DNA from: Bacteriovoracia bacterium
GTDB lineage: Bacteria; Bdellovibrionota; UBA1018; JBFWNL01
DNA: 64,000 bases
Assembly: GCA_050251055.1 (NCBI GenBank)
Contig: JBFWNL010000003.1
Coordinates: 64,001 to 128,000 of the forward strand
Direction: 5' to 3'
Part shown: positions 24,186-31,731 of the stretch, in pieces
Layout: every line of letters begins with the position of its first letter
Numbering within the stretch: the stretch's first letter is position 1
The notes under the pieces: model-generated
What the model was told of the DNA's origin: nothing
The model's input: the letters and a program-made list of their open reading frames with translations, nothing else
Databases searched by the model: none
Program-made: the position numbers and the translations under genes

Positions 24186-25234
24186 TCGCGCCCGCCGGCC
24201 GGCTTGAACCGGGAGCCTAAGCTTAAAATGCGGCGGATCGCCCCGTCATCATCCTCGTCGTAAACGTCCCCGATGACCTCTTCCAATATGTCTTCGATGG
24301 TCACGATCCCCATACGCTGGGTTTGCGAGTAAACGATGCTCAGATGGCTGCGCTTCTGCTGCATTTGCCGAAGCGCGCTGATGAGCGAGGCGCTTTTTTG
24401 CACCTTCACGGCGGGTCGAATGATCAAACGCCAATCCGCCTGCCCCGCCCGCCGCAGGGCCATGAACTCCTTCGTGTTAATGATGCCGATTACCTCGTTC
24501 GCCTCCAGCACGGGCAGGCGGGTATGCCCGGAGGACACGACGACAGCCTCTACCTCGGCCAGGTCCTGATCCGTGCGCACGGTAACGACGCTTTCCCACG
24601 AAAGGTACACGTCTTTCACCCGGCGCTTTTCTAAATTCACGAGATTCAGCACGTACTCTTTCGCCGGCTCCGAGAGATCGGCGACCTCGATCGGCTCCGG
24701 TTCGGCGGGCCGGGCCGCGGAGACGCTCTTACGGAAAAAAATCTGAAGAGTCTTTTTGGTCGACCATTCCAAGATGCTTACGACGGATGAAAAAAACCGA
24801 TCCAGGAATGCCAGGTAGGGCGCCGCCTTCAGGGCGATTCCCACGGGGTTACGCAACGCCAACGCCTTCGGTACGAGCTCTCCCATGACAACACTGAAAA
24901 AAGTGAGCGGCACCACTACGACGGCGACGGACAGAAACTCAGCGACGTTCCGACTCACGCCCAGCCTGGATTGAAAGATGGGGCTGATGAACTCCCCCGC
25001 GCCCGCCCCGCCGGTCGCCGCCGCGACCGCCCCGACGAGGGTGATGCCAATTTGAATGACGGAAAGCGTGCGTTCGGGTTTCTCCCGCAGACGCAAAAGC
25101 TGGGTCGCCTTGGGATTGCCCGCCTTCTCGAGTCCGCGCAGGCGCGCTTTCCGCGCCGTGACGAATGCCATTTCAGCCGCGGCTAAAAGCGCGTTCAGCG
25201 CTAAGCAGCCGGAAATCAGCAGGATCTCTTCCAT
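24182..25234 (-). CDS. CNNM (DUF21)/CBS hemolysin-family membrane protein
   Basis: AAAEMAFV, LSVIQIGIT, GELVPKALA, SGHTRLPV, GIVTIEDILEEVIGD. Confidence 0.92.
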   Translation of the reverse strand: MEEILLISGCLALNALLAAAEMAFVTARKARLRGLEKAGNPKATQLLRLREKPERTLSVIQIGITLVGAVAAATGGAGAGEFISPIFQSRLGVSRNVAEFLSVAVVVVPLTFFSVVMGELVPKALALRNPVGIALKAAPYLAFLDRFFSSVVSILEWSTKKTLQIFFRKSVSAARPAEPEPIEVADLSEPAKEYVLNLVNLEKRRVKDVYLSWESVVTVRTDQDLAEVEAVVVSSGHTRLPVLEANEVIGIINTKEFMALRRAGQADWRLIIRPAVKVQKSASLISALRQMQQKRSHLSIVYSQTQRMGIVTIEDILEEVIGDVYDEDDDGAIRRILSLGSRFKPAGGRD

Positions 25235-25320
25235 TTTGTCCGGGTTGTACCTGGTTTGGCCGCCAAAATAAATGAGTTGCGAATGTAGCGCGACCACTTC
25301 CCCAGATTCACTTTGATGAT

Positions 25321-25420
25321 TACTTAATTTAATATATTTAGATTTTAATATTTTTAAATATATGTTTTTATTGTGTTATTTATAAAATAAAATACATATA
25401 AATTAAAATTAATTTATTTA
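25321..25420. other. Extremely AT-rich tract
   Basis: 6 G/C in 100 nt by hand count, in an otherwise GC-rich window; TTGACA follows at 25423. Confidence 0.9.
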
Positions 25421-25473
25421 ATTTGACACTAAGAGTCAATTATAGGAAAATCTTCGGTATGGAAGGGGAAATT

Positions 25474-25773
25474 ATGAAAAAAGTAATCTTCAATTTAATC
25501 GTCCTGATCAGTCTGGTTTCGAATTCGCTTGGCGTCGCGGAGTCACTCGCAACAGAAGAACCTACCGGCCTCTATTGTTGCACTTGCCTACTTCTCCAAG
25601 ACCATCCTCGCAAGGAGCCCATTTATTCGAACAACGTGATCGAAGTCGATCCCGGAGAAGACCCTGGAGCCGTGTGCAGTTCGCCACGGCCAGGATTTCT
25701 AAAGTGCTATCTTAGACCGAACCAATTTTGCGCGCCCCAGTTTGAACAGTGGTTTGGTAGCGTCCTGGATTAA
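25474..25773 (+). CDS. Small secreted Cys-rich orphan protein
   Basis: GGAAGGGG RBS; MKKVIFNLIVLISLVSNSLGVA signal; six Cys in the mature part. Confidence 0.65.
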   Translation: MKKVIFNLIVLISLVSNSLGVAESLATEEPTGLYCCTCLLLQDHPRKEPIYSNNVIEVDPGEDPGAVCSSPRPGFLKCYLRPNQFCAPQFEQWFGSVLD

Positions 25774-25900: not shown

Positions 25901-26680
25901 ATGGCAAGACTTCCACGCATCGTCCTGGCAATTCTGGTCATTCCTTTTGGCGCCCCCACCGCCGCGCGAGCCGATCAAAACAGCGACTTACGAACCGCGA
26001 CGATCGAAAGCGTCGCCCGCAACCGCAAGGAGTGGGGCGTGGATCTGGAAGTCGGCACAAGCCTTCAACGCGGCAACGTCGACAAAAGCCTGGGCAAATT
26101 CACCACGTCGCTCTTCAAGGCCAACGACCCCTATTCGGTTTATCTCGATGGCGTCTACGCATTCGGAGCCGTGGGCGTCAAACGCTTCGAGAACCGCGCC
26201 ACGGGGACCTTGAGACTCGACTACCGCATGAGCCCCTTCTGGAAAATTTTCGTTTTCACGACGCATGGATTTAACGAATTCCAAAAGCTCGCCTACCGTG
26301 GCTCGATGGGAGCCGGGCCCTGGGTGGATTTCGAAGTGGGCGGCACGAAGCACGGCGTGAGCGCCGCCGTAAGCCACGAGTTCGAGCAGTTTTACGGTTT
26401 CGCCGCGGAAAGAACCGCTCGCGGTTCGCTCCGCTATCTCTTCTTCGTGCCGATCTCCGAAAACGCGGGGGCCGGCTTCGACTTCTTTTACTGTCCCAGC
26501 TTGGGCGACTTCGCTGACCACCACCTCTACTGGGCGCCTTTTTTGGAAGCGAAGGTGATCGATCAGTGGATGACGATGAAGCTTTCGGTATCCATCGAGC
26601 GAGATTCGCGACCCAAACCCGGCGTCTTCGCGAACGACACCCAGACGATGGTGTCGATTGGATTTCATGGCGGAAAGTAA
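25901..26680 (+). CDS. DUF481-like outer membrane beta-barrel protein
   Basis: Signal peptide; GTSLQRGN, alternating beta-strand pattern, terminal DTQTMVSIGF. Confidence 0.7.
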   Translation: MARLPRIVLAILVIPFGAPTAARADQNSDLRTATIESVARNRKEWGVDLEVGTSLQRGNVDKSLGKFTTSLFKANDPYSVYLDGVYAFGAVGVKRFENRATGTLRLDYRMSPFWKIFVFTTHGFNEFQKLAYRGSMGAGPWVDFEVGGTKHGVSAAVSHEFEQFYGFAAERTARGSLRYLFFVPISENAGAGFDFFYCPSLGDFADHHLYWAPFLEAKVIDQWMTMKLSVSIERDSRPKPGVFANDTQTMVSIGFHGGK

Positions 26681-26698
26681 CTCAGGCTGACGCTCAAA

Positions 26699-27100
26699 AT
26701 GACCAACGACACGCACAGCAAAACGATTGGCTACCTGGTTTGGATCTTCGGGTTTTTCGGCGCCCATCGGTTTTACTACGGCAAGCAAATCACGGGCGCG
26801 ATTTGGTTTTTCACGTTAGGCTTGCTGGGCATTGGCTGGCTCGTCGACTTATTTTTAATCCCGGGCATGGATCGCGAAGCGGACTTCAAGTATCGAGCCG
26901 GTCCCTTGAACTATTCGGTGGCTTGGCTGCTTTTAGTCTATCTGGGCGTCTTCGGCTTCCACCGCTTCTACCTGGGCAAGTGGATGACCGGCCTGCTTTA
27001 TCTGGTGACCCTCGGTTTCTTTGGAATCGGCGTGCTTTTCGATTATTGCACGCTTAACGGCCAGGTGGATGAAATCAACACGTTGAGCGGGGCGAACTGA
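26699..27100 (+). CDS. TM2 domain (NINE) protein with two TM2 units
   Basis: GFFGAHRFYYGK and GVFGFHRFYLGK. Confidence 0.92.
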   Translation: MTNDTHSKTIGYLVWIFGFFGAHRFYYGKQITGAIWFFTLGLLGIGWLVDLFLIPGMDREADFKYRAGPLNYSVAWLLLVYLGVFGFHRFYLGKWMTGLLYLVTLGFFGIGVLFDYCTLNGQVDEINTLSGAN

Positions 27101-27216
27101 AATTCATAAACGAATGCTCTAAATTCGTAGGTAGCTAACGGTTCCTAATTTCTACTGAAACGGTGGGCGCACTCATCCACCAACTATATCCAAAAAAAAC
27201 TGCAGCAACTACACCT

Positions 27217-27562
27217 GGACTCGGCTTCCGCTCTCAGCGCTACTCGCGCTTCGGCTGCAGCTCGGGCTCTTTCGCGGCCCGCAAGCGGGCGCCCCGCTCA
27301 GTCCGCCGTTCGAGTCCCGTCTTAAAGTACGAAACGCCACGCGTTTCACTAATTATAAACCCGCCACTTTTTCAAATCAGCCCGAGAGCTTCCGGGCATC
27401 GTTTCCCTCTCTCGAAATATTTTCCTGAGGGGGATACCACGCGTCAGGATGACGCGCGCGCAGCGGCGTGACAGGGCAGGAGCCCGACCCCCTCAGGAAA
27501 ATATTTCGAGAGAGGGAAACGGTGCAGGGAATATTTTAGTGCTGATTTGAAAAAGTGGCGGG
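27217..27562. repeat. Structured repeat copy 1 (~346 bp; nested 22-bp and 38-bp stems)
   Basis: Aligns end to end with 28196-28543. Arms 27360-27381/27541-27562 are perfect; 27396-27433/27488-27525 has one G-T pair. Confidence 0.92.
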
Positions 27563-27584
27563 CCAAATGGGACGAGTATCGAAC
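27556..27584 (-). mobile_element. Degenerate tRNA-Asp 3'-end remnant (att-like site)
   Basis: tggcggg-ccaa-atgggac-gagta-tcgaac versus the tRNA's tggcggg-agag-acgggac-tcgaac at 28537-28560. Confidence 0.6.
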
Positions 27585-27643
27585 TTGGTACTGGTCGCAA
27601 GCTGCCTAGTTTGTGGCCAACAGTTGACCGCAAAACGAGGGGT

Positions 27644-27940
27644 TCACTTAGCAGTATCAATAATGCAAAGTCCGGTAGCAATAGCGACTTTGATTCTTAC
27701 GTTCGGAATATTACGTTCTTCTATCGAAAGCTCAGGTGCAAAGTGGGATGCAAGTTTCCCATTTTTTTCACGGCATTTGTCTTCAAGTTTTCCCTTAACT
27801 GCCACATCCATTGATTCAGGTCTAGGTGCCGACCCAACAGATAGCCAATGAGCAGAAATAGGCTCCAGAAGCTCTTCAGCGTGTAAAACTTTTGCTTGTA
27901 GAGTCATGAACAAAACTATCGCGAATGTAGCTAATTTCAT
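27644..27940 (-). CDS. Low-GC small secreted orphan protein between the two repeats
   Basis: GAGGA RBS; MKLATFAIVLFMTLQAKVLHA signal; two Cys; AT-rich codon usage. Confidence 0.65.
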   Translation of the reverse strand: MKLATFAIVLFMTLQAKVLHAEELLEPISAHWLSVGSAPRPESMDVAVKGKLEDKCREKNGKLASHFAPELSIEERNIPNVRIKVAIATGLCIIDTAK

Positions 27941-28195
27941 TTTTTCCTCGCATGCAAATCCATTTAACACCGTGCGTCAAAAAAGTAAATATCTTTTATA
28001 TGCTATGGGCTAGTTCTCTATTTTTGGGCCGTAAGAGCCAAAACGATTGATTATCCGAACGGGTGTCTAACGTCAGGGGCGCAGTCTAATCCCAATGCAT
28101 TCCGGTTAGAGCTTGGACACAATCAGCCAAGTTACTAGAGTTTTTCTGGATTCGCTTACCACGAACAGAACAAAACTCCACTTTTACCCAAACTA

Positions 28196-28543
28196 GGACT
28201 CGCCTTCCGCTCTCGGCGCTACCCGCGCCTCGGCTGCAGGCCGGGCTCAGGGCCCACCCGCAAGCGGGTACCCGGGCCCTTCCGCCTTTCTTGTCCCGTC
28301 TTCAGGTACGAAACGCTAGCGCGTTTCATTCATTATAAACCCGCCACTTTTTAATAACCGCTCGAGTAATTTCGGACCCAGTTTAACTTTCAGGAAAATA
28401 TATCCCCGAGGGGGATAACACGCGTCAGGAAGACGCGCGCGCAGCGGCGTGAAAGGGCAGGAGCCCGACCCCCTCGGGGATATATTTTCCTGAAAGTTAA
28501 ACTGGGTTGGGAAAACTTGGTGCGGTTATTAAAAAGTGGCGGG
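28196..28543. repeat. Structured repeat copy 2 (~348 bp; nested 22-bp and 39-bp stems), overlapping the tRNA 3' end
   Basis: Arms 28340-28361/28522-28543 and 28376-28414/28469-28507 are both perfect inverted repeats. Confidence 0.92.
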
Positions 28544-28613
28544 AGAGACGGGACTCGAACCCGCGACCTTCGCCGTGACAGGGCGACGTTGTAACCAACT
28601 CAACTACTCCCCC
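28537..28613 (-). tRNA. tRNA-Asp (GTC) with encoded CCA
   Basis: Reverse complement GGGGGAGTAGTTGAGTTGGTTACAACGTCGCCCTGTCACGGCGAAGGTCGCGGGTTCGAGTCCCGTCTCTCCCGCCA: cloverleaf, anticodon loop CTGTCAC, TTCGA T-loop. Confidence 0.97.
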
Positions 28614-28875
28614 GGTAAAATGAAGTAGAATTCTCTGTGGTTAGATCCCTATGGCTATTCTCGTTGCTCCGCAAAGTCAACCGGCCAGTGAGCCCGCGCC
28701 TCACAAATCCAGCGCCGCTTCGGGAAATCCCTCTCCTTCCACCCTGCCTAGGCACACCGGTAACATTTTGATATCACTCTATTTTTTCGGCTCTACCCGT
28801 CCCAAAGACTTTGACAGGCGAAACCTTTTCTGAGAATGGATCGCCACCGTTTCATTTTCCAGAGGGGGAAAATTT

Positions 28876-30237
28876 ATGCGCGCTTGGCGAATTCTCGCGG
28901 CGACTTTTTGCACGCTCACGATCCATCTGTCCGCTTACCCGGCCTACGGGAACCCACCCATCGACTTTTCGAATCGAGCCGCGGTGGCGCAATGGCTGGA
29001 CCTGGGTATCGAACAAGGACAGTATCGCGGCGTCGGCTCCACGCTTGAGAATTCAGTCGCGATCGCGGTCCACCAAAAAATCCTATCCGGAGAATCGCCT
29101 TGGAAAGTGGAGGCCGTCGTGAACTACCATCCCATCACGGGCGAAGCCTGGCCGGTGACGGTAAAGGACGTACAAATCTCCCAGTCGCCAGAAACGTTCC
29201 AGAAGGTGGCGGTCAGCGCGACGCTTTTCCTGAGCAAAAAAAGTGACCCCAAAGCACGCCTGGTCGCCGGCGTGAGCGCCGAACGATTTAGCGTCCAGTA
29301 CAATAGCGGCATCGAGGGGCGCAAGGCCGACGCGATCGAGCTCGAAAAATACGTACAGGAAGAAATCACCACGCGATCTCTCTACCGCCGCCGCGCGGTC
29401 GAAATGAAGGAAACCGGCACCATCGGCTTCGTGCCCGGGATCCGCAGTTACAACTACAATTGGGATTCCATTATTCTAGAAAGTGGGCTGAAGCAAAAGC
29501 TCCGCTCCACCGTGGAAGATTTCATTAACCATTACGACTACGCCCGCTGGAAGGAACTGGGCCTGCCCATGAACCGAGGCATCCTGCTCGACGGCCCGCC
29601 CGGCACGGGCAAGAGCATGGTCGCGAAAGTCATCCTCTCGAACGTCGTACAGAAGGTGTACAAAAAGGAAGTCACCTATATTTACGTGGTCGCCCGGCAC
29701 ATCATCAATAAGGAAGCCGTGAAGAACATCTTCGCGGCGGCCCGCCTGCTGAATCCAGCCGTAGTTTTTATCGAGGACATCGACCTCATCGCCGGCACCG
29801 ACCGCAAGGACCGCATGGACGTAAAGAACGAGCTCATGCAGCAGTTAAGCGGCATCCAGGAACTCAACGGCGTGCTCACGATCGGCACCACCAACGTCGG
29901 CGCGCGCATCGACGACGCGCTTAAGCGGTCGAAACGCCTAGGTTTTCAATTCACGATCGGCGCGCCCGCCATGGCCGAGCGCGTGGCCTTGTTCACGGTA
30001 TTCACGAACAAGCTCGCGCACGAAGACTTGGATTTCCGGGCCTACGGCGATCAAAGCGAAGGCATGACCGGGGCGGACATCCAGGAGCTGATCGACGTAG
30101 CCACCGAACGGGCCATGCGTCAGGGATCTTTTAAGGATCCCGGCCAAGGAGATGGCAAGCGTCGCGTATTACTGAAGGACGAGCACCTGCGGTACGCATT
30201 CGCGCTCCGTAAAACCACGCGCATTCCTGGAAAGTAA
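28876..30237 (+). CDS. AAA+ ATPase with N-terminal signal-peptide-like segment
   Basis: Walker A GPPGTGKS, Walker B VFIEDID, sensor-1 TTN, DALKRSKRL, GMTGADI; N-terminus MRAWRILAATFCTLTIHLSAYPAYG. Confidence 0.9.
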   Translation: MRAWRILAATFCTLTIHLSAYPAYGNPPIDFSNRAAVAQWLDLGIEQGQYRGVGSTLENSVAIAVHQKILSGESPWKVEAVVNYHPITGEAWPVTVKDVQISQSPETFQKVAVSATLFLSKKSDPKARLVAGVSAERFSVQYNSGIEGRKADAIELEKYVQEEITTRSLYRRRAVEMKETGTIGFVPGIRSYNYNWDSIILESGLKQKLRSTVEDFINHYDYARWKELGLPMNRGILLDGPPGTGKSMVAKVILSNVVQKVYKKEVTYIYVVARHIINKEAVKNIFAAARLLNPAVVFIEDIDLIAGTDRKDRMDVKNELMQQLSGIQELNGVLTIGTTNVGARIDDALKRSKRLGFQFTIGAPAMAERVALFTVFTNKLAHEDLDFRAYGDQSEGMTGADIQELIDVATERAMRQGSFKDPGQGDGKRRVLLKDEHLRYAFALRKTTRIPGK

Positions 30238-30249
30238 GGGGCAAAGCAT

Positions 30250-31731
30250 ATGAAAAAGTATTTGATGACCATCCTACTCACGTGCCTAGCCGTCACCTTC
30301 ACCTCCACGGCCACCGAAGATGACCCACTCTTCCGCCAGCTTTCGCCGGCGCTGAAGTATTGGCTCCAGGAAAACCCGCTCATCCCCACCGAGATGACGC
30401 TGGATATGTCCTTCCAAAACTATAAGCAGCTGCATGCCTTCGCGCTCGACCGCATCCTCAGCCGCGACGGTTCCGATTGGAAGATCTACAAGGTGAAAAA
30501 CTACGATTCCATGGGGAACGAGTCCCCCGTGGGTTACGCCGAGCTGCCCGTGAATTCCAAAGGCGAAAACCGCGAGATCCTAACGGACGGCTACTACTTC
30601 GCCTATAAGGGCGATCCGAAGACCGGCCCCCGGATCGTGGTGCAACCCACGCAGCGTTACGAATACTACGTTTCGGACCAATACTTCATGATGAAGGACG
30701 CGGTCGAGATTTACTATGCCAAGCGATGGGAAACCGAGGCCCGCGAGTTCAAGGCGCTCCTGGCCCGCGAGCTGAACGAGCGCAATCTCTTCCGCAATTC
30801 CGTGCTGGAGTTCACCACGAGCGACGCCAGCCCGAACTTCAAATCGTTCGCGCTCACTTTCATGGATCACGTGGAGGACATGAAGATCGATTGGAAAGAC
30901 CTCATACTGCCCAAAGACTTCCACCAGATGCTGTACGAGAACACCGAGGGTTTTCTTCAGCTCAACGCTCAATACCGGGAGCACGGCCTGAAGCAGAAAA
31001 AAGGCCTGCTGCTGTACGGTCCTCCGGGCAACGGCAAGAGCCTGGTCGCGCAGACGCTGATCTCGTCGATGTACCAAGGCAAGCTCAAGGACCAAGTAAC
31101 GATGATCGTGGTCACCGCGCGGCATCTTTCGTTCCGCCACGCCGTCAAGGCGCTCTTTGAAGAAGCCGCTCGCCTAGCTCCTTGCGTGATCTTCATGGAG
31201 GACATCGATCTATTGGGTATCAAATCGCGGGATGGCCAGGCAGATAACTCCGCCAAGCAAGCCGAAGTGCTCAACGAGTTCTTGAACGCGATGGATGGCG
31301 TGGTCGACACGAGTGGCCTGCTCATGATCGGCACTACCAACAAAGTCGACGCCATGGATAGCGCGTTGACCCGTTCGGCCCGCTTGGGCATGCACCTCTA
31401 CTTCGAAAACCCCCGCTACCCGGAGCGCAAGGAGTTTTTCCTACGCCTGGGCACGAAGAAAGCCGTGTGGGCGGAGGATGTGACCGCCGAATGGCTGGCG
31501 GGTGAAACCGAAAACCTCGGCGGCGCCGATATCGTGGAGATTATCTCCATCGCCAAGCAAAACGCGTTGCTTGCGGGCTCCTACGCGGGCGAGAAGCTCC
31601 TGCTCACGAAGGCGTTCTTCGCCGATGCGATCGCGCAGATTCGCCGGGATCACGGCCGCCGGGACGATGACCGCGAAGATCTGCTTCCCGAAGCGCTCCG
31701 CAACCTCCACACCCTGGAGGCGACCTTCTAA
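30250..31731 (+). CDS. AAA+ ATPase paralog with N-terminal signal-peptide-like segment
   Basis: GPPGNGKS, IFMEDID, TTN, DSALTRSARL, LGGADI; N-terminus MKKYLMTILLTCLAVTFTSTA. Confidence 0.9.
   Translation: MKKYLMTILLTCLAVTFTSTATEDDPLFRQLSPALKYWLQENPLIPTEMTLDMSFQNYKQLHAFALDRILSRDGSDWKIYKVKNYDSMGNESPVGYAELPVNSKGENREILTDGYYFAYKGDPKTGPRIVVQPTQRYEYYVSDQYFMMKDAVEIYYAKRWETEAREFKALLARELNERNLFRNSVLEFTTSDASPNFKSFALTFMDHVEDMKIDWKDLILPKDFHQMLYENTEGFLQLNAQYREHGLKQKKGLLLYGPPGNGKSLVAQTLISSMYQGKLKDQVTMIVVTARHLSFRHAVKALFEEAARLAPCVIFMEDIDLLGIKSRDGQADNSAKQAEVLNEFLNAMDGVVDTSGLLMIGTTNKVDAMDSALTRSARLGMHLYFENPRYPERKEFFLRLGTKKAVWAEDVTAEWLAGETENLGGADIVEIISIAKQNALLAGSYAGEKLLLTKAFFADAIAQIRRDHGRRDDDREDLLPEALRNLHTLEATF

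Follow-up and report, generated by a model that had tools for sequence, protein, structure and literature searches.

We read a region beside the tRNA-Asp gene of a Bacteriovoracia genome, with a probability of about 0.6, as a tandem stack of two miniature, gene-less, non-autonomous integrative units with a folded attachment site at the tRNA-Asp T-loop. The units are termed non-autonomous since none of them encodes a recombinase. They belong to a widespread family that appears to insert at the T-loop of many different tRNA genes and is apparently undescribed; full-text literature searches found no description of such units.

Organization of the array at tRNA-Asp

Within the window, the whole 64,000-nucleotide stretch that was analysed, two ~347-bp direct repeats (27217-27562 and 28196-28543) flank an orphan gene beside tRNA-Asp, and each consists of a GC-rich module and a ~200-nt rod hairpin. 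Whole-unit BLAST aligned 28196-28543 with 27217-27562 at 79% identity over 348 nt (E 2.7e-75). The direct-repeat families D1-D3 and D6 are spaced by 979-981 bp, in agreement with the ~980 bp given in the initial annotation, which had also correctly placed a tRNA-Asp 3′ end at both copies (the intact gene at 28537 and a remnant at ~27556). tRNA-Asp(GTC) is the single tRNA of the window according to ARAGORN, which found 45 tRNAs, one of them Asp, in the whole genome. The features of the array are as follows.

28537-28613, minus strand: tRNA-Asp(GTC) (ARAGORN; Rfam tRNA 69 bits)
28537-28557, minus strand: proximal copy a, tRNA-Asp positions 56-76
28340-28414 and 28469-28543, no strand: arms of the unit 2 body, a rod hairpin with its apex at 28415-28468 (inverted repeat I1; fold)
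28340-28346, plus strand: second part of the unit 2 inverted copy a′, a sense copy of the tRNA 3′ end
28310-28327, no strand: unit 2 small hairpin sh, which splits the inverted tRNA copy (model helices 7/8; terminator-like on the plus strand)
28288-28301, plus strand: first part of the unit 2 inverted tRNA copy, equal to the 3′ arm of the closing stem P1 (inverted repeat I10; alignments)
28194-28287, plus strand: unit 2 core with the conserved hairpin domains P2 and P3 (covariance model R1, 139.8 bits; covariation)
28194-28202, plus strand: displaced direct-repeat remnant of unit 2, equal to the 5′ arm of P1
27644-27970, minus strand: orphan ORF between the units, 98-108 aa, part of neither unit
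~27556-27585, minus strand: decayed copy of the tRNA-Asp 3′ part, which starts the distal rod (direct repeat D6; tRNA-strand reading)
27360-27562, no strand: unit 1 body, rod hairpin (inverted repeats I2 and I3; fold)
27331-27347, no strand: unit 1 small hairpin sh
27308-27322, plus strand: unit 1 inverted tRNA copy (I5; 15 nt, a perfect complement of tRNA-Asp gene positions 28546-28560)
27215-27307, plus strand: unit 1 core with P2 and P3 (covariance model R1, 136.3 bits)
27215-27223, plus strand: displaced direct-repeat remnant of unit 1, 7-9 nt

The whole matches of covariance model R1 extend over 28194-28329 in unit 2 and 27215-27349 in unit 1. The tRNA-side arm of the unit 2 body starts within the tRNA acceptor end, and the last 7 nt of tRNA-Asp form the start of the proximal rod. 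The segment 28288-28301 is a sense copy of the T-loop and the 3′ side of the T-stem, with 12 of its 14 nt matching tRNA-Asp. The decayed copy at 27556-27585 is a former working tRNA 3′ end, once that of unit 1.

In copy 1, the 22-nt outer stem (27360-27381 / 27541-27562) is 100% complementary, and the inner arms (27390-27433 / 27488-27531; 44 nt, 93%) enclose a 54-nt apex (27434-27487). The arms of copy 2 are 75 nt long and 88% complementary, with 54 nt between them. The folding energies are -201.6 kcal/mol (z -13.5) for copy 1 and -213.7 kcal/mol (z -14.3) for copy 2, and 0 of 100 shuffles folded as well in either case. These values bear out the giant rod hairpins that had been described in the initial annotation, and the apex is, as stated there, identical between the copies at 51/54 positions (family D2). 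The covarying fold that had been ascribed to the hairpins holds in part: a conserved fold with variable sequence is present, but the rod stems are the locus-specific, variable body of each unit, and the conserved covarying part is the GC-rich module together with the small hairpin. Elsewhere the body is reduced to a loop of 6 nt, as at L030, or takes the form of an ordinary terminator, as in Elusimicrobia.

The orphan ORF has a signal-peptide-like N-terminus and lies in DNA of lower G+C (40-46%), as had been noticed before. It matched no Pfam family, and a word-indexed protein search returned the ORF itself alone. The array is covered by short-read contigs from two DNA runs of one study, and since a 914-nt contig spans 27492-28405 with zero differences, the array is not an assembly artefact, which had already been judged unlikely. 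Contigs from three DNA runs of a single study break at the repeats and showed no joints, excised form or empty site. A search for empty or filled sites among metagenome contigs with the neighbouring AAA-ATPase gene gave 99 pattern matches and no relative.

Unit layout at the tRNA T-loop

On the tRNA strand, a unit reads as tRNA(1-55), a copy of positions 56-76 (a), the hairpin body, an inverted copy of 56-76 (a′), a ~90-nt core and a direct repeat of 56-76 (a). The order a - body - a′ - core - a was found in every copy examined, and the inverted copy is interrupted by the small hairpin in each unit. The units are 170-350 bp in size, have no integrase or other gene inside and are mostly solitary, without cargo or ORF. 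With a length of 18-32 nt or more, the direct repeat stops where the gene does; in 49 rows it reproduces position 56 to the gene end with at most one mismatch. Judged from the sequences, this layout is the footprint left when an element inserts site-specifically in the T-loop and supplies a replacement for the tRNA 3′ end.

The initial annotation had missed the defining feature of the units, the inverted and direct copies of tRNA 56-76 around a core, and with it the family at many tRNA genes.

Of the 19 rows without an encoded CCA, a single one has CCA after the direct repeat, and the genomic flank is mostly copied instead. Since the flank is usually copied and CCA is rare, the direct repeat derives from the gene as DNA rather than from the mature tRNA. 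An origin by reverse transcription was rejected, because no match to the reverse transcriptase family RVT_1 was found in the genome and because the direct repeats reproduce the gene together with its flank instead of a CCA-tailed tRNA. At L078, the terminators after the working tRNA and after the direct repeat differ. At L092, the displaced copy has CCA and a strong terminator, and the working gene has no CCA. Therefore, foreign DNA arrived at these two loci.

Covariation and strand signals

Across 25 sequences, 90.8% of the cells are paired and 32 of the 43 pairs changed on both sides; none of 500 shuffles reached the observed value, and slid controls gave 32-47%. With 90 distinct sequences from two phyla, the paired fraction is again 90.8% and 37/43 pairs show double changes (0/500 shuffles on four of five measures). 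Pairing in helix P1 reaches 84-87%, and double changes that track the local tRNA occur at 6-7 of its 9 pairs. The fold of the units is backed by covariation to the level of many curated RNA families. In the congeneric genomes G053 and G061, the fold of an orthologous unit has been maintained through numerous compensatory changes, and where the tRNA acceptor stem has changed, the direct repeat has changed with it. This pattern suggests selection or conversion in place and not a decaying parasite.

Such conservation raises the question of whether the units are RNA elements maintained by the host, either structured RNA genes or cis-acting modules of tRNA transcription units similar to the RtT repeats of E. 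coli tyrT, with a role in, for example, tRNA 3′-end processing, stability or regulation and with the insertion footprint being secondary. We regard this explanation as unlikely, although the covariation is strong in all helices, and the G053/G061 orthologue, with its compensatory changes and its tRNA-tracking repeat, occurs where only two Xer-sized tyrosine recombinases are present. A conserved G-U type pair is found on the plus strand at three positions (78/88, 52/89 and 22/90 sequences), which also speaks for RNA, but away from these three positions wobble pairs are not in excess (42 G-U versus 69 A-C cells), and the types of mismatch point clearly to neither strand. The small hairpin is terminator-like on the plus strand, where many Bdellovibrionota copies have a T-rich tract behind it; on the other hand, Elusimicrobia copies have a canonical terminator between the tRNA and the core on the tRNA strand. 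The units of L152, which sit between tRNAs within a tRNA operon, would suit an RNA module, whereas a scan for promoters and terminators found one promoter-like site against 1.4 expected and no shared promoter. The loop motifs of the small hairpin are heterogeneous.

Neither RtT nor any other Rfam family apart from tRNA matches the region. Rfam cmscan of 26500-29500 at E<=10, a check that had been suggested in the initial annotation, gave tRNA alone above gathering; the other six matches scored 10.6-30.5 bits against cut-offs of 40-80. The arrival of foreign DNA at L078 and L092 argues against a resident RNA gene as well. Furthermore, at least three unrelated cores occur with identical layout in the window's genome, which is easier to reconcile with a recombination site than with a single RNA function.

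Spread and sublineages of the family

In the window's genome, each of the 10 matches of covariance model R1 at E<=1 lies at a tRNA gene (Asp twice, Arg-ACG twice, Gln, His, Leu-CAG, Val, Ala and Leu-TAG). The GC-rich module recurs at ~8 further tRNA genes, and units are present at about one-fifth of the tRNA genes. The initial annotation had proposed a covariance-model search for copies at tRNA 3′ ends, and such copies exist: the model found the module in 23 of 151 sampled Bdellovibrionota genomes and in Elusimicrobia, nearly always directly downstream of a tRNA or tmRNA gene. A tRNA or tmRNA was located at the expected place and orientation for 14 of the 21 BLAST-found loci in relatives and for 38 of the 52 nhmmer matches in a scan of public genomes.

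Distances between cores were computed with the tRNA-derived arms left out. The core nearest to Asp unit 1 is that of the His unit (0.094), and the core nearest to Asp unit 2 belongs to another genome (0.13). Since these cores come from different sublineages, the two Asp units are not a local duplication. Of 29 cores, 16 have their nearest neighbour at a different tRNA of the same genome and none at the same tRNA. By these sequence relationships, the units appear to have arrived repeatedly and independently, and the mosaic similarity of units, whose arms match a different tRNA at each site, may reflect an exchange of cores between them.

It is also conceivable, although in our estimate distinctly improbable, that the units are inert scars of integrase islands whose interior was lost and which were multiplied by unequal crossing-over between tRNA-end repeats, with no present mobility or function. 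Decay is evident in the direct repeats, which are worn down to 7-9 nt at five tRNA types of the window's genome (Asp, His, Leu, Val and Ala), and in distal partial units cut off at variable points; the units lack recombinase genes and share their insertion site with integrase islands. However, compensatory change has preserved the fold across two phyla, and cores group by genome across different tRNAs. The separate sublineages of the Asp cores speak against multiplication in place, and tandem blocks at L004, L024 and L052 are 100% identical, so that recent events must have occurred there.

Recombinases and integrase islands

On contig C3, which holds the window, no match to the tyrosine recombinase family PF00589 was found. 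The initial annotation had pictured an integron-like cassette architecture, and a related explanation is a REP/REPIN- or IS200-type element; the array would be moved by an integron integrase or an HUH (Y1) transposase, respectively. Folded sites of variable sequence, the tandem arrangement and a cargo gene between the units made this plausible, but it is now largely refuted and very unlikely. The genome has no integron integrase: all eight of its tyrosine recombinases score 27-117 bits, below the NCBIfam cut-offs of 265 and 435. Y1_Tnp (PF01797) had 0 matches in the 93.5%-complete genome, and the control matched in 6 of 14 reference genomes; IS110 DEDD, TnpB-type and reverse transcriptase (RVT_1) likewise had 0 matches each. 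The inverted arms copy the local tRNA and are not family-wide terminal repeats. Moreover, no attI or Pc was seen, most units are solitary, and the Asp ORF lies between units and is not cassette-bounded. What stands of the non-autonomous, structure-recognized cassette system originally suggested is the lack of a recombinase in the units, the anchoring at tRNA 3′ ends and the tandem arrangement with variable cargo in several genomes, including stacks in G031 (2.8 kb) and G095; its integron component does not stand.

Tyrosine integrase genes end 140-320 nt before a unit in four cases (G013:C18, G007:C10, G013:C16 and G089:C41), and the integrase of G013:C18 (PF00589, 79 bits) is accompanied by an HTH_17 gene. 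In the window's genome, the integrase at C7:201845-203095 is followed by the same layout with a different core family and an 18-nt tRNA-Met repeat. Integrase-bearing islands thus use the insertion site of the units and sometimes abut them. Since a partial tRNA end and a hairpin intervene between the integrase gene and the inverted copy in all three integrase-adjacent cases read, the adjacency is best explained by two elements stacked at a shared site and does not establish that the unit serves the island as its attachment site.

A co-occurring recombinase or HUH gene, which the initial annotation had suggested looking for, did not emerge. The L172-type integrase was rejected as a partner, as it is present in 64 of 151 genomes of the phylum and in 7 of the 23 unit-bearing ones. 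The divergent Xer-like recombinase at C1:312805-313734 was also rejected, its distribution following taxonomy and not the units. Downstream of the integrase at C5:251250-252470, the closest relative of the unit-adjacent integrases in the window's genome, there is no unit-like structure. In each of three unit-bearing genomes of family f18, the only tyrosine recombinases are two of Xer size.

Proposed mechanism and its implications

The order of the parts is what remains after a small circle has recombined with the tRNA gene at the boundary of positions 55 and 56, with the junction of core and tRNA 56-76 as its attachment site. In this model, the incoming element supplies its own tRNA 3′ end, and because of this the tRNA gene keeps working; the proximal copy a at 28537-28557 was brought in by unit 2. 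Later arrivals enter at the same spot and push earlier units and cargo outward. The inverted and direct tRNA copies may pair into a stem that mimics the double-stranded target and is closed by the conserved core, and by analogy with the integron attC and the CTX-phage attP hairpin, this folded form may be what the recombinase recognizes. Mobility would be conferred in trans, and the most plausible source is the tyrosine integrases of tRNA-targeting islands that share the insertion site.

A further idea, which we put forward tentatively and hold to be rather unlikely, is that the module of inverted copy, core and direct copy constitutes a new structure-specific attachment site. A single strand would fold so that its stem resembles the double-stranded 3′ end of the targeted tRNA gene, with the conserved two-hairpin core closing it. 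It would let tiny circles without genes, and perhaps also single-stranded DNA arriving by conjugation or from phages, enter many tRNA T-loops with a recombinase acting in trans. In a bolder variant, RNA of the plus-strand core may take part in the recombination or its control.

tRNA genes are classic landing sites of islands and are viewed as plain double-stranded sequences read by the element's own integrase. A gene-less element of less than 350 bp is unusual in this setting when it has a fold so well backed by covariation, holds its target's 3′ end in both orientations, and is found at about one-fifth of the tRNA genes of one genome and in two phyla or more. If the fold is a recombination substrate, it would be the third natural case of folded single-strand recombination, after attC and CTX attP, and a general route to stack cargo at tRNA genes. 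If it acts as RNA, it would represent a widespread RNA family of tRNA loci that is missing from the catalogues. In both cases, the units give rise to "repeats" near tRNA genes, to pseudo-tRNA fragments and to breaks in assemblies, for which annotation pipelines currently offer no explanation.

Relation to known systems

The integron attC and the attP hairpin of CTX phage and IMEX are folded single-stranded recombination sites. As in these sites, a stem of two inverted copies reproduces the double-stranded site in the units and is broken by an unpaired or branched element, and structure is conserved with variable sequence. In particular, helix P1 is a stem formed from two inverted copies of the chromosomal target, as in the CTX/IMEX attP. 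The integrated order a - body - a′ - loop - a fits single-strand integration, although a double-stranded circle gives the same order. The units differ from attC and CTX attP in having no IntI and in targeting the tRNA T-loop instead of attI or dif; unlike an integron, they show no attI/Pc platform and do not follow the rule of an ORF plus attC per cassette.

The RtT repeats of the E. coli tyrT operon (RF00391) also lie behind a tRNA gene and each end in a copy of the tRNA 3′ end. They are not known to have an inverted tRNA copy or such a core, and the Rfam model gave no match to the units at E<=10. In an E. coli mobilome preprint, the mode of action of rttR/tyrT is described as not known (10.1101/2024.07.17.603846). 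Unlike MITEs, the units have inverted arms that differ between loci as copies of the local tRNA, and there is no short target-site duplication. They also differ from REP/REPIN-RAYT and the IS200/IS605-derived PATE, since the genome has no Y1 HUH transposase (RAYT/TnpA).

Williams reportedly defined, in 2002, sublocation classes of islands and prophages that integrate in tRNA and tmRNA genes, one with crossover in the T-loop. Like the units, elements of the T-loop class insert in the 3′ part of the gene, bring a replacement 3′ end and leave a direct repeat at the far junction; they also target tmRNA, as the units do at L022, and stack at one tRNA. With respect to this class, the units have the distal direct repeat and the intact rebuilt proximal tRNA, and lack an integrase gene of their own. 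They further differ from such islands in their size, in the inverted copy of the whole 21-nt identity block, in the ~90-nt core with RNA-like covariation and in the use of one core family for many tRNAs.

CIMEs and tandem accretion at one att site have been described for streptococcal ICEs. The units are far smaller than CIMEs and have a conserved folded core, and derivation by deletion from a larger element, a CIME trait, is only a candidate origin for them. Like CIMEs, they are att-flanked, have no recombination genes and occur in tandem with integrase-bearing elements at a shared site, as seen at L172, at L017 and at C7:201.5-203.1 kb of the window's genome.

Two gene-less units behind tRNA-Asp

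The tRNA-Asp gene is adjoined by two direct repeats of a small, gene-less folded element (hereafter unit), with an open reading frame between them.

28537-28613, minus strand, tRNA-Asp(GTC), the sole tRNA gene of the window
28196-28543, direct repeat of ~347 bp, copy 2 (unit 2, proximal)
27644-27970, minus strand, ORF of 98-108 aa, between the two copies in DNA of 40-46% G+C
27217-27562, direct repeat of ~347 bp, copy 1 (unit 1, distal)

The copies are 79% identical (BLAST, E 2.7e-75), and members of repeat families D1-D3 and D6 recur in them at a distance of 979-981 bp. The body of each copy forms a ~200-nt hairpin (hereafter rod). In copy 1, the rod has a perfect outer stem of 22 nt and inner arms of 44 nt with 93% complementarity, and in copy 2 its 75-nt arms are 88% complementary; both apices are 54 nt long. 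The folding energies of copies 1 and 2 (-201.6 and -213.7 kcal/mol; z = -13.5 and -14.3) were equalled by 0 of 100 shuffles each. The proximal rod starts within the acceptor end of tRNA-Asp, and the distal rod starts in a decayed copy of that end. The ORF has no Pfam family, and a word-indexed protein search matched only the ORF itself. The array is covered by short-read contigs from two DNA runs of one study. Since a single contig bridges 27492-28405 with 0 differences, the array is real, and the assembly artefact considered in the initial annotation is ruled out. The description that the initial annotation gave of the repeats, rods, tRNA link and ORF is correct.

Just past tRNA-Asp, a pair of neighbouring AAA-ATPase paralogues (453 and 493 aa, both with a signal-peptide-like N-terminus) occupies 28876-31731, and the first matches Pfam AAA at 72 bits. 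A sharp G+C trough (to 18.5% over 200 nt) is located at 25200-25500, between the gene of a CBS/CNNM-like membrane protein and a small ORF.

Conserved core and anatomy of the units

In the window's own genome (G000; 3.77 Mb, 21 contigs, 93.5% complete, 45 tRNA genes), BLAST with one copy gave six further matches, which cover only its first ~95-170 nt, the GC-rich module. All six are located 110-270 nt from a tRNA 3' end and antisense to the tRNA (Arg-ACG, Gln-TTG, His, Leu-CAG, Val-TAC and Ala-CGC). Partial copies behind tRNA-Leu-TAG and tRNA-Lys-CTT were found by profile search, and a covariance model of the module (R1) gave 10 matches in G000 at E ≤ 1, all at tRNA genes. About nine of the 45 tRNA genes are occupied.

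On the tRNA strand, all copies have the order tRNA(1-55) - a - body - a' - core - direct repeat of 56-76, where a is a copy of tRNA positions 56-76 and a' is its inverted copy. The body is a hairpin whose 5' arm begins in the tRNA acceptor end, a small hairpin (sh) splits a' close to positions 68/69, and the core is ~90 nt long. Pairing of a' with the direct repeat forms the closing stem P1 around the core, and its alternative pairing with the working tRNA end forms the rod. Rods differ from locus to locus, their stems being locus-specific and not conserved, and what occupies the body position in relatives ranges from a loop of 6 nt (locus L030) to an insert of 165 nt (L025). Of the direct repeat, just the initial 7-9 nt, which are the P1-pairing nucleotides, are left at Asp, His, Leu, Val and Ala of G000; at Arg-ACG, Gln and most relatives' loci, the repeat is intact through CCA.

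Covariation of the fold

A structure of 43 pairs (helices P1, P2a/b, P3a/b/c and sh) was written by hand on 25 sequences. In this alignment, which was not fitted to a model, 90.8% of the cells are paired and both sides change in 32 of the 43 pairs; 0 of 500 shuffles reached the observed values, and slid controls were 32-47% paired. R1, trained on Bdellovibrionota sequences only, aligned 93 matches (90 distinct) from two phyla, with 90.8% of cells paired and double changes in 37 of the 43 pairs, counts that are biased toward the structure by fitting to the model. Here 0 of 500 shuffles reached the observed values on four of five measures and 6 of 500 on the fifth, and slid controls were 32-46% paired. 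The fold of the core and sh is real. The covariation is explained only by a folded nucleic acid.

Distribution

BLAST detected the module in 9 of the 41 genomes examined from the order, G000 included. At 14 of the 21 relatives' loci, a tRNA or tmRNA is placed and oriented as expected. As in G000, most matches sit at tRNA 3' ends, where the initial annotation had suggested looking for them. Across the phylum, R1 detected units in 23 of the 151 genomes sampled, with a patchy spread over families (f18, 7/9; f25, 3/3; f4, 4/9; f17, 5/20; f15, 0/20; f21, 0/23). Scanning one genome per species with a sequence pattern gave at least 80 loci; among those listed, full-length matches are from MAGs labelled Bdellovibrionota and many others are from Elusimicrobia. 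A tRNA lies within 600 nt in the expected orientation for 38 of 52 profile matches in these loci, and several of the rest are at locus edges. R1 gave at least 49 matches, nearly all full-length, in the Elusimicrobia-type loci listed, and 0 in 22 loci from unrelated taxa that are chance pattern matches. The unit family is real, widespread and apparently undescribed; full-text literature searches gave no description of such units.

Stacking and mosaic origin

With the tRNA-derived arms left out, the core of Asp unit 1 is closest to the His unit (distance 0.094) and that of unit 2 to a unit of another sampled genome, G013 (0.13). The nearest neighbour is in the same genome at another tRNA for 16 of 29 cores, and at the same tRNA for 0 of 29. 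The apices of the two Asp rods are identical at 51 of 54 positions, though the two Asp cores are not mutually closest, and local duplication is rejected as the origin of the array on the latter ground. Since the Asp cores are nearest to other units yet the rod apex is common to both, the units are mosaics, and the array would reflect two arrivals or core exchange.

Stacks elsewhere carry different genes, in line with the variable cargo first proposed. In G031, the unit next to the tRNA is L025, and its direct repeat doubles as a of an older element. This older element has a 2.8-kb body (LysR regulator, two unknown genes, BrnT-like gene) and terminates in another unit, L029. The layout in G095 is the same, with BrnT-like and epimerase-like genes, and G089 has units behind three tRNAs within one operon.

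Insertion at the DNA level

At L078 (Elusimicrobia), the terminator after the working tRNA is unlike that after the direct repeat, and at L092 (Elusimicrobiaceae MAG, tRNA-Gln-CTG) the displaced copy has CCA and a strong terminator, the working gene neither. Because of these differences, we conclude that the proximal tRNA 3' end and body arrived with the element and that the distal copy is the original. At L092, the incoming unit altered CCA acquisition of the tRNA.

For CCA-less genes, CCA follows the direct repeat in 1 of 19 rows, and mostly the gene's own flank is found instead. Since the repeat rarely has CCA and continues into the gene flank, it was copied from DNA, not from mature tRNA. 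A retro-element origin is ruled out by this copying of the flank together with 0 matches to RVT_1 in G000. Most direct repeats measure 18-32 nt, starting at position 56 and extending 0-9 nt past the gene end. They are longer where a second unit comes next, be it a complete one (L052) or one cut off at varying points (L004, L024, L136, L148 and others).

Recombinases and integrase islands

G000 encodes two large serine recombinases and eight tyrosine recombinases (XerC-like, XerD-like, two more Xer-like and four phage-type), none of which is an integron integrase. Y1 HUH transposases, IS110 transposases, TnpB-type nucleases and reverse transcriptases gave 0 matches in this 93.5% complete genome. 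Units are like attC and the CTX attP hairpin in principle, the recombinase and a single-stranded stage being putative here. The integron framing of the initial annotation is not borne out, and mobilization by an integron or HUH system is very improbable.

On the tRNA strand, four units are preceded at 140-320 nt by the end of a tyrosine integrase gene (genome:contig).

G013:C18, integrase (PF00589, 79 bits), HTH_17 gene alongside
G007:C10, integrase, split gene, 61% identical to that of G013:C18 over 168 aa
G013:C16, integrase
G089:C41, integrase

In the three integrase-adjoining cases read at single-base level, the integrase gene and the inverted copy are separated by a hairpin and part of a tRNA end. 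Downstream of the integrase gene C7:201845-203095 of G000 come a terminator, a degenerate inverted copy, a core from a different family and 18 nt repeated from the 3' end of tRNA-Met; this core is homologous to gene-less units behind tRNA-Pro GGG and TGG. The best reading of such cases is that an integrase island has been stacked onto a complete unit at a shared site. They show T-loop-targeting integrases acting at precisely the unit site, but not that these integrases move units.

The L172-type integrase family, named after a unit-adjacent integrase of G013, is found in 64 of the 151 phylum genomes, yet in only 7 of the 23 unit-bearing genomes. The search for a co-occurring recombinase or HUH gene proposed initially yielded no partner. 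Three f18 genomes with 3-5 units apiece have just two Xer-sized tyrosine recombinases each, and a divergent Xer-like gene was rejected as partner, tracking taxonomy and not units. These patterns speak against any simple dependence of this kind.

A 612-aa large serine recombinase gene of G000 (C4:249708-251546, plus strand) runs into the opposite-strand tRNA-Ser(GCT) c[251491-251581], its last ~18 codons being antisense to the tRNA 3' part.

Integrative element or RNA

We consider the units to be integrative elements, with a probability of about 0.6. A circle with the site core|a would integrate to give a - body - a' - core - a, an order expected from a double-stranded circle and a folded single strand alike. 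Single-stranded DNA is favored by P1 mirroring the double-stranded target, by the sh branch that renders P1 asymmetric, and by a layout common to several unrelated cores.

A primary RNA function, ranked second, is unlikely. It is consistent with three conserved G-U type pairs on the plus strand, where sh is also terminator-like in Bdellovibrionota. An orthologous unit in G053 and its congener G061 keeps its fold via many compensatory changes, and its direct repeat tracks an acceptor-stem change of the tRNA that is itself compensated. However, there is no wobble excess outside the three fixed positions (mismatches, 42 G-U vs 69 A-C). Ranked third, the reading of the units as inert scars is improbable. 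The initial reading of a non-autonomous, structure-recognized system is right in spirit; no unit encodes a recombinase, and the fold may be what is recognized.

In their behaviour, the units match both the tRNA-targeting integrative elements of the T-loop class (in the sublocation scheme of Williams 2002) and the non-autonomous, att-flanked CIMEs. Unlike both, they are tiny and have an inverted identity block and a covarying core, and a single core family serves many tRNAs. The one feature in common with E. coli RtT repeats is that tRNA 3' ends bracket the unit, and the array region has no match to the Rfam RtT model.

Related structures

At least three further unrelated core families in G000, outside the window (C13:64200-64520, C1:239250-239512, C6:135510-135870 and C2:455900-456286), have the layout of inverted tRNA end, core and direct repeat. 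They sit behind tRNA-Lys-TTT, tRNA-Cys and tRNA-Pro GGG and TGG; the Pro-type core recurs after the C7 integrase with tRNA-Met arms. In G053, a group I intron (L161:1740-1943; Rfam RF00028, 88 bits) splits the tRNA-Asn anticodon loop, and this gene was missed by ARAGORN; tRNA-Asn of G061 has no such intron.

A conserved G+C-rich apex motif of ~55 nt tops long locus-specific hairpins in G000 (e.g. C4:53135, C8:63754, C13:64374). With up to 4 mismatches it occurs at 54 places. At 15 of these a tRNA gene is no more than 400 nt away, and near-exact matches are mostly among these 15. The Asp rod apex differs from this motif and is found only in the two Asp copies. Far from any tRNA gene, at C2:198300-198520, a lone tRNA-Ser 3' part (variable arm to CCA) precedes a giant perfect hairpin that bears the common apex, and probably marks where a large island ends.
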